Below, in pieces: positions 30,001-39,000 of a stretch of DNA of 47,845 nt (its first letter is position 1; the number at the start of each line of letters is the position of its first letter). The stretch is taken from assembly GCA_039803205.1 (NCBI GenBank), contig JBDRYB010000015.1:1-47845 (forward strand). The letters are read 5' to 3'. The position numbers were made by a program. Source of the stretch: a candidate division WOR-3 bacterium. GTDB lineage: Bacteria > Hydrothermota > Hydrothermia > JBDRYB01.

Positions 30001-33000
30001 CGGACAGACGCTTATTCTGCTTTCATAGAGCGCGACTCGTTTTTCAGGGGGGAATTCCTGATCGAGGTTTCCCGTGGATGTCCGAACCGGTGCAGGTTTT
30101 GCCTTCTGGGGTTTTCAAACCTACCCCCGAGGTTCCTCCCAGGTGATATAGTCCTTGACATCCTCGGCCAATTGCCCGTTGGCCTCACCAAACAGGTTGG
30201 CCTCGTTGGGTCCGCGGTTGCGGAGCATCCAGGGGTCCGAGAGATATTTGAGAAGGCCCCTCCACACCTCCTACTGAACCCCAGCTCCGTCAATATCTCG
30301 TCTCTGGATCCGGAGCTTCTCAGGCTCATGGCTCGCCGCGGAGCGAAAACCCTGACCCTGGCCCCTGAGGTCGCCTCAGATAGCCTCAGATGCTCAATAA
30401 ACAAACCTTTTGAGAACGAGAGGGTCATTGATGTCGTGAACTGGGCAAGGGACGCTGGGTTCTGCTCTCTAAAGCTTTACTACATGATAGGGCTCCCCAG
30501 AGAAACCGATGATGATGTCCAGGCTATATCCAGTCAAGTAAAGGAAATAAAGCGGATCTTCAAAAAACGCGTTCGCGTCACCGTATCACCATTTATTCCG
30601 AAAGCACAGACGCCACTCTACAGGGCTCCATTCATGTCTGAGGCTGATTACAAGAGAAAGGTCTCTGCCCTCAGATCTCCCAAGGATGTCCTTTTCAAGC
30701 TCCACGGCTACAGAAAATCCCGAGAGGAAGCCATACTCTCCAGAGGGGACGAGATGGTTTCCCTCGCGCTGCTTCTGGCCGCTGAGGAGGGGCTTGGGTT
30801 CTCCTCCGCTCTCAGGAAAGTCGGTGCGATTCCATCGCTTTACCTCGATGATCCGGCTTACCCTCTGTCAGCCCCTTTTCTGCGCATAGACACCGGGGTA
30901 TCACGGGATTACCTGGATGAGGAGTGGGAGAGGTGCAGGGGGGGCGAGCCATCCCCTCCGTGTCATCCCGGCTGTGGAGAATGCGGGGCATGTGGAGAGG
31001 GCGCCCACGATCCGCCCCGGTGATCCTCTTGAACTTCCAGGGACATTTCTGCTTCAGGAACAAAATCATCATCTTCTTTGTCTAATGCTTTGAGCTAGAA
31101 GGTTCTTTTATAGGATAATTTAAGCATGCCCGGCTGGGAATCCCTTTTGGGACTCCTCCTCCTGGCGCAGGAGGCTCCGGTTGACACGGCTACTGGCCCG
31201 GACACCCTCGTGGCCCCCTATTTCCACACCGACTTCTCATATTATTTCCTGAGGAGCACCCAGGGCATCAAGGACACCGCGGCGATACACAGGGATTATG
31301 TCTTTCTCTCAAGGGTCTACAAGCAGGTTCCTCTGGACACTTTCGGGATAATGCCCCTCTCGCGCTACCTTTCTGAGCGCGTGAGCTATAGGAGGAGACA
31401 GTGGCTCGTTGATGCCCTTATCGCGGAGAACAAGGAAGAAAGCCAGCAAAGTCAGGGTCTCATCCCTGATGTTGAGATACCCGTTCAGATGCCGGGCCGC
31501 CTCGCCTTTCTCGGGGAGGGAGGAAAGCTTGAGATAGACGGCCAAAACAGCCTTACGGTTGGCGGAAGGGGTGATTATCCCATACTCCCTGAGACAACCC
31601 GGGCATCCCGGGACTACGGCATGGGAACCCCGTTTTCACTCGAGATGGACCAAACCATGCAGATACGGCTTACGGGCACGGTTGGGACAAAGATAAAGGT
31701 GCTAATTGACCACGATTCCGAACGCATGAACCAGGCCAAAAACCAGGTCGTGATAAAATACGAGGGCGAGGAGGATGAGTTCGTTCAACTGCTTGAGGCA
31801 GGGGATACGAAGGCCGAGTTCCCCTCAACCCAATATGCCTCATTCCCCGGCGGCTCAAGGACAGGCCTCTTCGGAGTCAAGGGGGTCTTCAAGATGGGCG
31901 GCCTCACTACCACACTTCTGGCTGTTAGGGATAGGGGCACCAGGGAATCAAAGCAGTTCACGGGCGGTGCCGAGATGGTCACCGAAACCCTTACTGCGGA
32001 GCAGTATATCAGCAGGAAGGTCTTCAGCCTCGGAATAAACCCTTCAACAGATACCATACTCGGTTTGGCGGTCTACCTTGATGATAACATCCTCTCCAAC
32101 AACCTCCAGCTCCAGGCAAAGCCAGGAATAATTTACTACGAAGGGGATCAAACATCGCCGATGAAAGAGACCGGAATGTTCCATCTTCTTCGTCCAGAGA
32201 AAGGCGAATACACATACTTTCAGGACAGATCTGACCTCGGTTGGATCCAGCTAACAAACGCCCTGAGCAAGGGTCAGAGGCTCGGGGTCTACATGGTGAT
32301 AAAGCGCGGCCAAAACACCATTCAGATAGGGGATATATCCGGAGACACTCTCAGGCTAAAGATGATATGCCCTGGTGCGTTTCCGGATTCCATAGACTGG
32401 CATACCGCCTCGCCAGAGACCCTCAAGGTTTGGAACTATGAGTTCAAAAACATATACTACATAGGCTCAGATATGTCTCGTCAGCCCTTGAAGGTCACCA
32501 TATTCAGGGAGGAGGGCCGCAAAGAAAACAACCCCATAGGGGACTCCGGCAGGGGTCCTTATATTGCTGTTCTCGGCCTTGACAGGGATACGAATGGGTT
32601 CGTTGAGGAAATGACCATGATAAATGGCGTTCCAATAAGGCTGGTTGATTACAGGGAGGGACTGCTAATATTCCCGGACTCCATGCCGTTCACATCCGAT
32701 AGCCTCCTGGTTCCGGACACCACTGTCTATTACAAAAGGCAGTGGAATCCGAGCGACGAGAGAAAATACAAGATAGTGGTCCAATACACTAGGAAGGTTG
32801 ACCAGATATTCCTCGCGCCCGATATTCAAGAGGGTTCTGTTGTGGTAAAGGTTGGGGGCCAGGAGGTCCCTCAATCCGCATACAGGGTTGATTACAACAT
32901 GGGATTCCTCTACATCCTTGATGACTCCTACTTCTCGGATCCCAACGCGGTCATAGACATCTCCTATGATGTCATACCCACATTCTCCCTGACCCAGCGC

Positions 33001-36000: not shown

Positions 36001-39000
36001 CTCTCCCAGGGTTTCAACTTCGCGAACCTATCGGTGAGGAGCTCGTGGGCGCTCGGTTTCACGAGAAATAAAGCCCCGACATCAGCTACATGGGCCAGAA
36101 ACCTCACAAACCCCCAGATCAATGCCACCCTTTCAAACCTGAACTTCATCCTACCGCCCGAATATCAGAAACAGGTGACCTCTGCTTCGCTTTCCTCGGG
36201 TTTCACCCAGAAGTTCGGCTGGACAGAGCTCCTACCCGATAAGATCCTAACCCAAAACACCATAGAGACCTCGTTCTCTCCCCTCGCACAGCTAAACATG
36301 AACCTCAGATCCGGCACGAGCATAACCGCTTCCTACAATACCAGAACCAGCATAACCGTAAACCACCTTCCATACCTCCAGAAGGACTCAACCCAGAGCA
36401 ATAGCCTTTCCCTGAACCTCTCCCATACATTCCAGAGCTTCGGCGGCCTTAAATTCCCTTGGGCAGAGGGGAGGATACTGAAGCTGGAATCCGAGCTCAG
36501 GCTCTCCTTCAAGTATAGCCTCTCGATAACCAGATCCTACTTGATACCCTGGGATGATACAACGGGCGGATGGCACGACCTCACCGATGAGGACAAGCCC
36601 TACTCGGGAACGAAAACCATGAGCTACGGAATTGATGGGACATACAAGTTTTCATCCTCGGTAACGGGAACCGTTTCTTTTACGAACGATGAAACCCTCA
36701 ACCTGGCTACAAACACGGGCTTCAAAACGATGAAATTGCTATTCACGGTGAATTTCGTATTCTAAACCCTGCTAAACCGGATAAACTCATAGATGAGACT
36801 GGGTTACCGGACCCGATCCCGGAGCAAGGCCCTTATATACAGAGGCAATCCCTCGCAGAACCCCTCTGTCCAGAGTATTGGCTTTCCGAGCTCATCCAGA
36901 AGCATTACCGAAGGAAGTTTTTCAGAACCCAGAGCGGCCCTCAAGGAATCAAGAGAAACGCAAATCCCCTCACTCGCTCCGACCCTGATCGGGTAAACAT
37001 TAAGCTCCAACCCCTCAATCTGCCTCTGGGTCCTGTAAGAACCCTCATCGTCCCCGAGGAAGGCGACGAGAGCAGGATACTGAAGGAGATCGTTCAGGGT
37101 TCGGCCATCGCATAGCCTCAGCCTTGGCAACGAATCAATGGGCCTTGCCATGATGTCTCCGGGTTTTACCTCCTCGGCCGGAATTCCTGTCTCAAGCACA
37201 AGGGAAAGCTCCTCGCCTGACCGTATCTTGAACTCCTTAACTTGAACGAAAGGTTCTCCCTTCGCGTTTCTCCTTCCCCAGGTAAGGATGTAGTCTCCGG
37301 GTGCGAGGTGAAAGACCCAGAAATCCCCATTCTTTGGCCATGAGCCATCCTCCATTGGCCACCATAGATCATCAAGGCCCTCCCATTCCCATGTCTCCCT
37401 TCTCTGGACCGAAAAACCCTCAAACGATGTGTCTGGTTCGCCAAAAAGGGTGAAACAGAGCCTCAGGGTACCCGTCCTCAGGTAGCGAGGGGTTGCCTGC
37501 GCCCAAGCGAACCCCTTCTGCACAAGGACGACGCTAAGGCCCTTTGGCTTCTCAAAGTAAATTGGATGCCAAGCCCCACGATCATAATACTCAACCCAGA
37601 CAGAAAGGGGAGAGGGGCATCTAGCGAGCCTCGCTGGAAAGCCCCTGGCTCTCAGGGCCGCGACGAGAAGAACTGCTCGCTCCATCCTTGAACCCCGGCC
37701 TCTACTCAGGGTTGTAAGGGGCGAAGGGAATGGCCCGAAGAAATACCTCGTGGTGTCCAGTTTCACGGCTTTCTCAATTCTCTTCTTTATGTCCCTCGGT
37801 CTCCCGCAATCCGAGAATGCATCCCTAAGCGGCCCTCTCCAGTCCTCGCAGGGCTCATCCCATATCCTGTATGAGAGGAGATAATCACGAAAGATCGTGT
37901 CCGGGAAGGGGCCCCGGCTCTCATTTGCGAGCCGGATGTGATTCAGAAGGCACTCAGCTGTTATCTGGAGCCTATCAAGGTGAGGCATGCTCACAATGAG
38001 CCAGGATGCCTGTTCCCGGAGTTCTCCGGCCTCAGCGAGCGCGCGCTCAAGCTCCTGTCTGTTCCTGCCAGCATCCGCGAGAGCAGAATCCAAGGAATCC
38101 GGAGAGACCTCAAACACGCTTGCCAAAAGGAACAGGATCACTCGTCCCCCTTTGGATACCTGAGCCAGAAACTGTCTGTGAGCCTCGCTCCTCTGATGGG
38201 TCTTATCCGTGTGGTATCCCCTTTTACCGTAATCACGGTAGAGAAACCCCTACCGGAAAGGAGATAATCCCCCGGACCTATCTCACAGGTTGCAAGCCCA
38301 TCATTCCCAACTACGAGAACCGCTATGGTTCTAAGCGCACCGTAATTGAACACCGAAAGAGCAAGCGTGTCCCCGGGCCGGGATTCAACCAAAAGAACAG
38401 AGACATCCCTGTAATTCCTCGTAGAGTTTATCAGGGTGTAATCCGCCCCAGTCCTGTAAACATCGGGTCCAGAGGAATTACCCAGCCCAACCGAAAGAAC
38501 GAGGCCTGCGCGCCTGACTGGCCCCGAAAACCAAGCGGTGCAAAGGGAATCAGCTGGCTCGCAGCTTCCCGCGTATTTCCAAACCCCATTAACATAGACC
38601 TCTGTCCAGGAATGGTTTGACTCCGTGAAGGGCCACCAAGGCGTGTATGCTTGTCTCGCGGGGATCCCGACTGCCCTGAGGGCGCATATGTAGAATATGG
38701 TCATCTCCTCGCACCTTCCCCATCCAGATCGCCATGTCTCAAGAGGCCCCTGATCTCTTCTCTGATTAGGTTTATATTTTACCCGCTCGCCGCACCAGCG
38801 ATTGACTGCGATCGCCACCTCCTCGGGATCCTTTAGGCCGCAGACAACCGGCCGCAGGGAGTCCAGGAAAAACCCGCGCCAATCCTCGGGCGGCTCCTGG
38901 GATACTATTGGTGGAAGAACATATCTGAGGAACACCGAATCAGGGAGCTCGCGCGCCCAAAAAAATTCCTCCCGCGCCGCGAAAGCCAGCTCAATGTTCC

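Follow-up and report, generated by a model that had tools for sequence, protein, structure and literature searches.

The sprA locus and the predicted cargo

The window, the whole stretch of DNA that we analysed, is a contig of 47,845 nucleotides from a candidate division WOR-3 bacterium (JBDRYB010000015.1). Two of its genes are predicted to belong to a type IX secretion system (T9SS), one as cargo and the other as the outer-membrane translocon:

7752..9221, + strand: BNR/sialidase-type propeller cargo protein of 489 aa with a type-A tail, the only cargo gene in the window (TIGR04183, tail HMM, Pfam)
31126..36765, + strand: sprA/sov, coding for a short form of the outer-membrane translocon of the T9SS, 1,879 aa (TIGR04189 score 405.3 bits; cut-off 200)

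The profile search confirmed the initial annotation of SprA at 31126-36765. TIGR04189 matched the ORF in four stretches, which correspond in the six-frame search to model positions 57-258, 378-793, 1081-1521 and 2138-2313 of 2319. Three parts of the model, at about 259-377, 794-1080 and 1522-2137, had no match, and the protein is about 500 aa shorter than F. johnsoniae SprA, whose PDB chain has 2,403 aa. Besides, Pfam SprA_N scored 81 bits, the N-terminus looks like a signal peptide (MPGWESLLGLLLLAQEAP), and the F. johnsoniae chains 6h3i_A and 6h3j_A are the only PDB sequence relatives (E about 6e-26). In the phylum, which is probably related to WOR-3/Stahliibacteriota, SprA was found in 147 of 151 sampled genomes (121 of the 122 high-quality ones), 133 of which passed the TIGR04189 cut-off, with E-values of about 1e-47 to 1e-67 from a model built on Bacteroidota. 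Among the matches listed, these frames are about 1,750-2,000 aa long, open and free of stops.

The assembly spans 2,316,562 bases on 50 contigs, with a completeness of 95.93% and a contamination of 0.05%, and our crude gene call gave 2,017 genes. It turned out that 238 of the 2,017 proteins (11.8% of proteins; 18.0% of residues) end in a T9SS type-A tail, in good agreement with the load of one protein in nine reported earlier (244 of 2,191; 17.6% of residues). The iterated tail HMM started from 50 seeds and collected 224, 238, 238 and 238 proteins, where a match had to end within 15 aa of the C-terminus; it hit none of 2,002 reversed tails, 2,002 shuffled tails and 965 internal segments. TIGR04183 alone gave at least 125 matches at E<=1e-3 and at least 109 over its cut-off (150 of 187 candidates scored). 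An N-terminal hydrophobic stretch is enriched in the tail proteins (140 of 230, versus 638 of 1,772 remaining proteins). The cargo gene in the window belongs to the tail-HMM set, with TIGR04183 scoring 26.1 bits at 9030-9209 and Pfam finding BNR_2 and a FlgD_ig-like tail.

Most of the putative cargo are beta-propellers. BLASTP clustering, stricter than the earlier one and with the tail removed beforehand, separated them into one cluster with 64 FG-GAP/PQQ members, 57 of them tail-bearing, that takes up 5.1% of the DNA, and another with 59 DUF5122 members, 53 of them tail-bearing, that takes up 3.7%. Together, the 123 genes and 8.8% of DNA come near the 145 genes and 9.6% previously given, but they form two clusters and not a single family. 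Among 41 phylum genomes, this one has the fourth-highest number of first-look tail candidates (187; median 72; maximum 360). The description of the investment in T9SS as exceptionally heavy is thus borne out only in part: the load is high, but for the phylum not extreme.

Outer-membrane parts, sortase and regulator

Four proteins of the PorV/PorQ family exceed the NF033709 cut-off of 90 (194.6, 155.6, 154.3 and 116.1 bits), and three more are weaker. Pfam PorV reached 38.6 bits in this genome (cut-off 27), while the PorV equivalog NF033710 stayed below its cut-off (124 bits versus 250); a PorV orthologue is present in 60 of 61 phylum genomes. The response regulator PorX scored 368.4 bits with NF052313 (cut-off 300; C1:228102-229598); in the phylum it exceeded the cut-off in 33 of the 41 genomes tested, with up to 639 bits and E down to 1e-192. 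The number of PorV/PorQ proteins and the presence of a PorX-like regulator agree with the initial annotation. For the C25 peptidases and the PorE-like proteins the presence stood but the numbers did not: we found five C25 peptidases, all tail-bearing, where six had been listed, and verified one PorE-like protein of TPR-PD40-OmpA make-up out of two.

The PorU model NF033707 scored 342.8 bits in this genome, below its cut-off of 420, over model positions 3-693 of 1095. In the phylum, PorU was detected in all 61 genomes at E<=1e-30 (down to 1e-174), over the cut-off in 33, and porU often adjoins porV (e.g. G029, G023, G002, G005, G030 and G024), an adjacency that many phylum members share with the canonical T9SS. 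The PorE-like protein matched NF052230 (257.7 bits; cut-off 600) and CHU_0125_OmpA (268 bits; cut-off 620) about equally. A 765-aa protein with tail motifs adjoins a PorQ-like barrel (PorQ 78.7 bits; cut-off 220); the PorZ model gave it 18.6 bits against a cut-off of 260, and its structure model has a mean pLDDT of 35. By profile scores, PorW/SprE and PorP/SprF are not recognisable: among the selected proteins scored, NF052312 gave at best 39 bits (cut-off 250), on a CpoB-like TPR protein, and PF11751 gave 18.3 bits in this genome (cut-off 22.3).

Search for the motor and ring

The lack of detectable PorK/L/M/N, noted before for this genome and nine relatives, extends to a far larger sample: none of the four exceeded its cut-off in any of 151 phylum genomes. 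In this genome, GldL (TIGR03513), GldM (TIGR03517), GldK (TIGR03525) and GldN (TIGR03523) gave no match at E<=1. GldM and GldN had none at E<=1e-3 in the 151 genomes, and neither model matched anywhere, the control genomes being without T9SS. These controls are 14 genomes, among them B. thetaiotaomicron, which lacks a T9SS, and the set holds no Bacteroidota positive control for the Gld models. The best GldL score was 25 bits; of the GldL-like matches fetched, the two best fall on the N-terminal part of a PQQ propeller protein and on the coiled coil of an MCP. The best GldK score, 116 bits, came from generic FGE-sulfatase proteins, and as the model matched such proteins in 48 other genomes, the GldK search was sensitive. 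An FGE-sulfatase domain protein of any kind is missing from this genome.

In addition, we chose 81 envelope proteins by GldL-like or GldM-like topology and scanned them free of any prefilter, all 81 (75+6) with Pfam and, with NCBIfam, the 33 that Pfam annotated sparsely or not at all. No Gld/Por K-N family appeared in these scans, and no gene pair with the GldL-then-GldM topology exists in this genome. Judged by gene content, a SprA-containing T9SS lacking detectable PorK/L/M/N is a phylum-wide trait and is new here; the literature searched held no description of such a variant.

A predicted T9SS without its motor

Bacteroidota T9SS and the system here have in common SprA/Sov, the PorV family, PorX and type-A tails on cargo that Sec is predicted to export, and they resemble each other in a putative PorU-type C25 sortase with retained tail and in a TPR-PD40-OmpA protein that is PorE-like. 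The T9SS of F. johnsoniae combines a SprA-PorV translocon with GldK/L/M/N, and that of P. gingivalis comprises Sov, PorU/V/Q/Z, PorK/L/M/N and PorX; unlike both, the present one belongs to a lineage outside Bacteroidota in which PorK/L/M/N are not found over cut-off. The reading that we prefer, with a probability of about one half, is that the ORF at 31126-36765 encodes the SprA translocon of a reduced T9SS, from which the PorL/PorM motor and the PorK/PorN ring would be genuinely absent. Its outer-membrane set, here and in the phylum, would comprise SprA and several barrels of the PorV/PorQ family, among them the PorV carrier; further parts would be the tail-retaining sortase, the response regulator PorX and a PorE-like protein that binds peptidoglycan, and the cargo would be a very large Sec-exported set with type-A C-terminal sorting domains, mostly single beta-propellers of about 500 aa. 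Sec would take the cargo over the inner membrane, SprA and PorV would recognise its tail, the PorV-cargo complex would exit the pore, and PorU would remove the tail, so that the protein is released or anchored. With no motor or ring genes, the SprA pore would have to be run in another way. We infer that secretion occurs and does not need a dedicated trans-envelope T9SS motor; the energy would most likely come from binding- or folding-driven release, with Ton-type coupling as a minority option.

Three other explanations were weighed against this reading. It is unlikely, though to be taken seriously, that motor and ring are present in a form too divergent from, or non-homologous to, PorL/M/K/N, the T9SS then being energised in the usual way with some of its parts going unrecognised. 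Sequence models are blind to such a motor and the Gld searches ran with no positive control; about 28 of the 81 topology-chosen proteins have no Pfam family, NCBIfam assigned no informative family to the 33 tested, and family-less proteins adjoin PorV-like barrels (512 aa at C1:122385-123923; 197 aa and 119 aa in cluster A, one of the two stator clusters described below). PorX is also kept in most genomes, and in P. gingivalis PorX has been reported to contact PorL. But SprA, PorU and PorX were readily found at the same evolutionary distance with models likewise built on Bacteroidota, no adjacent pair shows the two-helix plus one-helix topology of PorL/PorM, FGE-sulfatase proteins are missing here, and the neighbours of porX are housekeeping genes, e.g. 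HPPK. Far less probable is an artefact, in which binning, contamination or gaps would account for the T9SS genes or for the absence, or the SprA/PorV/PorU set would no longer secrete. The assembly is indeed a 50-contig draft, 96% complete, whose contigs often end in cargo paralogues. As 25 of 100 contig-terminal genes bear a T9SS tail, contigs break preferentially at these paralogues, and the missing 4% is more likely to be repeats than a unique porKLMN operon. Moreover, contamination is 0.05%, sprA shares its 47.8-kb contig with ftsA, ftsZ and gyrA at an even G+C of 0.50-0.56, the pattern of presence and absence is the same in the 122 high-quality genomes, some of 1 to 6 contigs, and the listed sprA frames are long and intact over the phylum.

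The remaining explanation also takes PorKLMN as absent and lets ExbB-ExbD-TonB or Tol-like complexes, as sole proton-driven stators, power SprA or PorV; we regard it as improbable. This genome has only two MotA/ExbB-family genes, each clustered with a PorV/PorQ-family barrel, and of the 41 high-quality genomes of the phylum, 14 carry just one stator gene. G000, G032, G017 and five genomes of genus g2 share an operon exbB-exbD-exbD-tonB-receptor-(tail protein of 750 to 1,000 aa)-PorV/Q-like barrel, which G005 has minus the receptor, while in G008 a PorV-like gene directly follows exbB-exbD. The Ton sets are, however, explained by ordinary clients: in cluster B a SusC-like TonB-dependent receptor comes directly after exbB-exbD-exbD-tonB, and Plug-domain receptors exist in all 41 genomes tested (1 to 12 each). 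Cluster A looks, by its gene content, better described as Tol-Pal-like, with a CpoB/YbgF-type TPR protein (TIGR02795, 187 bits; cut-off 90) and an OmpA/Pal-like protein. Both sets resemble Ton/Tol-Pal in having two ExbD genes and a TonB_C protein, and beside cluster B lies a divergently oriented PD40-OmpA protein of TolB-plus-Pal-like make-up; unlike Ton/Tol-Pal, they have PorV/PorQ-family barrels and a tail-bearing protein embedded in them. In the evidence at hand, nothing links these clusters to SprA. Of 97 listed exbB loci, 40 were fetched, and only 14 of these had a PorV-family gene within about 9.5 kb; counted by genome it was 12 of 25, with none among the six genomes of the single-stator family f16. 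The PorV-TonB_C fusion, already noted as not kept in five relatives, occurs in none of 60 other genomes and is confined to this assembly: it is absent from the same-genus genome, where the orthologue is 85% identical and ends at 400 aa, and the fused TonB_C shares 67% identity with the TonB of this genome. The initial proposal that ExbB-ExbD-TonB drives the T9SS thus finds no support beyond gene neighbourhood.

In Bacteroidota, the motor is needed for secretion and the four motor and ring genes are held essential, so that a working motor-less T9SS would contradict this requirement. To our knowledge, every mechanistic model of the T9SS is built around the PorKN ring and a PorLM/GldLM motor driven by protons. 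The abstract of a preprint states that GldLM energises both secretion and gliding (bioRxiv 10.1101/2022.01.28.478170), and the reviews consulted confine the T9SS to Bacteroidota or place it only possibly in allied phyla. Returning to the reduced system, we consider tentatively, at somewhat less than even odds, that the SprA-PorV-PorU module may be a self-sufficient machine for secretion and surface attachment that works free of a trans-envelope motor, with PorKLMN as a later Bacteroidota addition for gliding or throughput.

In conclusion, a whole phylum with pore, carrier, sortase, regulator and huge cargo but not the four proteins makes the use of energy and a motor-free SprA testable. A cultured WOR-3 strain has been described (PMC12285271), and if it shares the gene set, a bench test of a motor-less T9SS would be feasible. 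Annotation tools that require gldKLMN will call these lineages T9SS-less, despite a sorting signal on about one in nine proteins. If the SprA-PorV-PorU module is indeed self-sufficient, the phylum would be a natural “minimal T9SS” that exports a tenth of the proteome.

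The SprA translocon and other T9SS components of the genome

The window holds the T9SS (type IX secretion system) translocon gene and one cargo gene, i.e. a gene whose product bears a T9SS type-A C-terminal sorting domain (called tail below):

31126-36765, plus strand: sprA/sov, T9SS translocon, a single open frame of 1,879 aa
7752-9221: BNR propeller with a sorting tail, the sole cargo gene within the window

The sprA product reached 405.3 bits against the NCBIfam Sov/SprA equivalog TIGR04189 (cut-off 200) and also matched Pfam SprA_N. Among solved structures, its only sequence relatives are the SprA chains of F. 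johnsoniae (6h3i_A and 6h3j_A), and it carries a signal-peptide-like N-terminus. It is a short form compared with the 2,403 residues of the solved F. johnsoniae chain, and it matched positions 57-258, 378-793, 1081-1521 and 2138-2313 of the model (length 2319).

The 5' neighbours of sprA are ftsA, ftsZ and a B12-binding radical-SAM gene, and its 3' neighbours are two transglutaminase-like genes on the opposite strand. None of them is a T9SS gene, and as a link to the system these neighbours were rejected. Besides, sprA and ftsZ are on separate contigs in a genome of the same genus, and a promoter and terminator scan around sprA gave nothing above chance. The radical-SAM gene (29476-31023, plus strand) is TIGR03960-like with 144 bits, which is under the cut-off; it shares 28 bases with the end of ftsZ, stops 102 bases 5' of sprA, and has one paralogue found in the genome (27% identity). 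Convergent with the end of sprA are the two adjoining transglutaminase-core proteins (36804-39133, minus strand; 445 and 331 aa), and beyond them come a protein of 489 aa for which nine membrane helices are predicted, and a glycosyltransferase. In the collection of named genomes, a Candidatus Stahlbacteria contig was the sole relative found. The FtsZ of the window shares 45% identity with that of the Stahlbacteria genome, and 39%, 42% and 27% with those of sampled genomes of the same class and phylum. Candidatus Stahliibacteriota is a candidate phylum in the NCBI listing, and is equated with WOR-3 in PMC12285271. The phylum of the present genome is probably related to it.

In the whole genome, four proteins passed the PorV/PorQ family cut-off and three further ones were weaker, while five C25 peptidases were found, all with a tail. 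The top PorU candidate (C1:281782-285762) reached 343 bits where the equivalog cut-off is 420, and PorX passed its equivalog cut-off (368 bits; 300). For a PorE-like TPR-PD40-OmpA protein (C6:96878-98866), the score was 258 bits (cut-off 600), nearly the same as the 268 bits that it reached for an “outer membrane integrity” family. The PorP/SprF match was under its cut-off, and the top PorW/SprE score was 39 bits, on a clearly CpoB/YbgF-like protein. NCBIfam also contains the models “putative type IX secretion system sortase PorU2” and “putative type IX sorting system protein PorV2”, so a second curated T9SS-like sorting system exists; this genome is outside it, with matches of at most 110 bits (cut-off 450) and 67 bits (cut-off 325) respectively.

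Sorting tails and cargo families

The assembly comprises 50 contigs totalling 2.317 Mb (95.9% complete, 0.05% contamination), and our rough gene call placed 2,017 genes on 90.8% of the DNA. With TIGR04183, 125 tails were detected at E<=1e-3, 109 of them above the cut-off, when 150 of 187 candidates were scored. We then used a tail HMM seeded with 50 TIGR04183 matches and iterated over the last 100 residues of each protein. It turned out that the successive rounds returned 224, 238, 238 and 238 proteins, the 238 being 11.8% of the protein set with 18.0% of its residues, and that the HMM hit nothing among 2,002 reversed tails, 2,002 shuffled tails and 965 internal segments. By a crude test, an N-terminal hydrophobic stretch occurs in 61% of the tail proteins, compared with 36% of the other proteins. 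Among contig-terminal genes, 25 of 100 carry a tail, against 11.8% among all genes. The assembly breaks at cargo paralogues, and the cargo count is therefore probably too low.

After removal of the tails, BLASTP clustering yielded two large propeller families, FG-GAP/PQQ (64 members, 57 with a tail) and DUF5122 (59 members, 53 with a tail), which jointly make up 8.8% of the DNA. For comparison across genomes, tail candidates were counted in 41 high-quality genomes of the phylum by a loose first look; the lowest number was 24, the highest 360 and the median 72. On this count, the present genome has 187 candidates and ranks 4th of 41, and its congener has 121. A heavy cargo load characterises parts of the phylum and is not peculiar to this genome.

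These results bear on the initial annotation. The genome-wide tail load that it described is borne out by 238 of 2,017 proteins with clean controls. Its single propeller family of 145 genes and 9.6% of the DNA is the same set under looser linkage, but stricter BLASTP separates it into the two families. Its view of the cargo investment of this genome as exceptional was overstated as regards uniqueness.

A third paralogous family consists of 20 proteins of about 525 aa with TPR repeats and a conserved basic C-terminus, and without signal peptide or tail; examples are C1:52637-54274 and C1:57841-59439 (L110:638-2275 and L110:5842-7440 in the fetched locus), both on the minus strand. Most of these genes (18 of 20) directly adjoin a tail-bearing propeller gene of either big family. 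Such an arrangement points to a cassette of two genes in repeated copies, in which a regulator or chaperone may go with its cargo.

Ton and Tol-Pal-like clusters

Only two MotA/ExbB-family genes exist in the genome, each of them clustered with two exbD genes and one TonB_C protein:

Cluster A, C1:7303-17556: with CpoB/YbgF-type TPR protein, OmpA/Pal-like protein and weak PorV-like barrel
Cluster B, C6:82427-98866: exbB, exbD, exbD, tonB, SusC-like receptor, 765-aa tail-motif protein, PorQ-like barrel and cargo genes

Judged by its proteins, such as the TPR protein with 187 bits as CpoB/YbgF type (cut-off 90), cluster A reads as Tol-Pal-like. Divergent from cluster B is a PorE-like gene. For the 765-aa protein (C6:88522-90819), an AlphaFold model made as a test for a PorZ-like fold had a mean pLDDT of 35.3 with an alignment of 8 sequences.

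The initial annotation had supposed that the ExbB-ExbD-TonB sets drive the T9SS. We fetched 40 of the 97 listed exbB neighbourhoods, about 9.5 kb on either side, from a list covering 40 other genomes. A PorV-family gene was near exbB in 14 of the 40 fetched loci and 12 of 25 genomes, and in none of the six genomes of the single-stator family f16. The order of cluster B is shared by the same genus, by five genomes of another genus (g2) and by the sampled genome G017. Plug-domain receptors occur in all 41 tested genomes (1 to 12 per genome), so the Ton sets need no further client, and the notion of an “orphan Ton”, a stator without receptors, is ruled out. A PorV-TonB_C fusion (C26:20958-22475) might look like a sign of Ton coupling. 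It is a single 505-aa frame with the PorV barrel at 74-386 and TonB_C at 424-501, the latter 67% identical to the TonB of the same genome. The fusion is absent from all 60 other genomes, the same genus included, where the orthologue is 85% identical and ends at 400 aa; being confined to this assembly, it was rejected as such a sign, and is a fusion of very recent date or else a chimera of the assembly. Taken together, the Ton-PorV link is a recurrent neighbourhood, for which a receptor with its surface partner is the best explanation. It offers no evidence for energisation, and the proposed drive is unsupported.

The operon of exbB-exbD-exbD-tonB, SusC-like receptor, tail-motif protein of 750 to 1,000 aa and PorQ-like barrel is itself conserved (C6:82427-96096 in this genome; fetched loci L070-L074, L075, L083 and L090). 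By analogy, it may combine a receptor with a T9SS-anchored surface partner in the role that SusD plays for SusC. Both stators of this genome are ExbB/TolQ-like; a methyl-accepting chemotaxis protein is encoded at C32:11613-12800, and no flagellar-type MotA was seen in the genome. Among the 41 high-quality genomes of the phylum, 14 possess a single MotA/ExbB-family gene, and in one other genome none was detected. In the one-stator cells, a single proton-driven stator serves all envelope work.

Motor and ring proteins in the genome and across the phylum

In a six-frame search of the whole genome, the GldK, GldL, GldM and GldN equivalog models had no match at E<=1. We also selected 81 proteins for a topology like that of GldL or GldM or for a signal peptide, and the topology candidates for PorL and PorM numbered 10 with two helices and 71 with one helix. 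No Gld or Por K-N family came up when the 81 were scanned directly with Pfam, or when the 33 whose Pfam annotation was scant or lacking were scanned with NCBIfam. No adjacent gene pair with motor topology was found in the genome: the sole adjoining candidates are a lamin-tail-domain protein and MnmA, and the other two-helix candidates adjoin dxr/dxs, ftsEX-M23 or a Wzz-like gene. The neighbours of porX gave no lead to a motor either (HPPK on the 3' side, an unannotated gene on the 5' side).

Across the phylum, SprA (TIGR04189) is present in 147 of 151 genomes (above the cut-off in 133), including 121 of 122 high-quality ones. A PorV orthologue was found by protein search in 60 of 61 genomes, PorU (NF033707) in 61 of 61 (33 above the cut-off), and PorX (NF052313) was above its cut-off in 33 of 41, with a top score of 639 bits. 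The porV and porU genes often adjoin, and this adjacency in many members is as in Bacteroidota. The Gld models, which were uncalibrated on any genome known to carry Gld genes and to which a non-homologous motor is invisible, found GldM (TIGR03517) and GldN (TIGR03523) in 0 of 151 genomes, and GldL (TIGR03513; top score 25 bits) and GldK (TIGR03525; top score 116 bits) above the cut-off in 0 of 151. Weak GldL matches appeared in 25 genomes, and the two best of those fetched lie in the N-terminus of a propeller and in an MCP coiled coil; the GldK-model matches in 48 genomes are generic FGE-sulfatase proteins.

Models built on Bacteroidota recovered other T9SS proteins of the phylum with E-values down to 1e-192, so the failure to find any of the four motor and ring proteins is poorly explained by plain sequence divergence. 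The lack of GldK/L/M/N that had been claimed for this genome holds, and extends to the phylum.

According to Lasica 2017 (PMC5445135), T9SS is exclusive to Bacteroidetes; a BLAST-based possible occurrence in Chlorobi, Fibrobacteres and Ignavibacteriae appears in PMC5837995, and T9SS and gliding are treated as phylum-specific and energised by GldLM in bioRxiv 10.1101/2022.01.28.478170. The words “secretion” and “T9SS” are absent from a 181-genome WOR-3 study (PMC12542636) and a WOR-3 isolate paper (PMC12285271). The full-text literature searched, with subscription journals largely outside its coverage and supplements excluded, gave no description of T9SS in WOR-3 or of a PorKLMN-less T9SS.

In conclusion, the best reading is a T9SS variant without PorKLMN that is conserved across the phylum.
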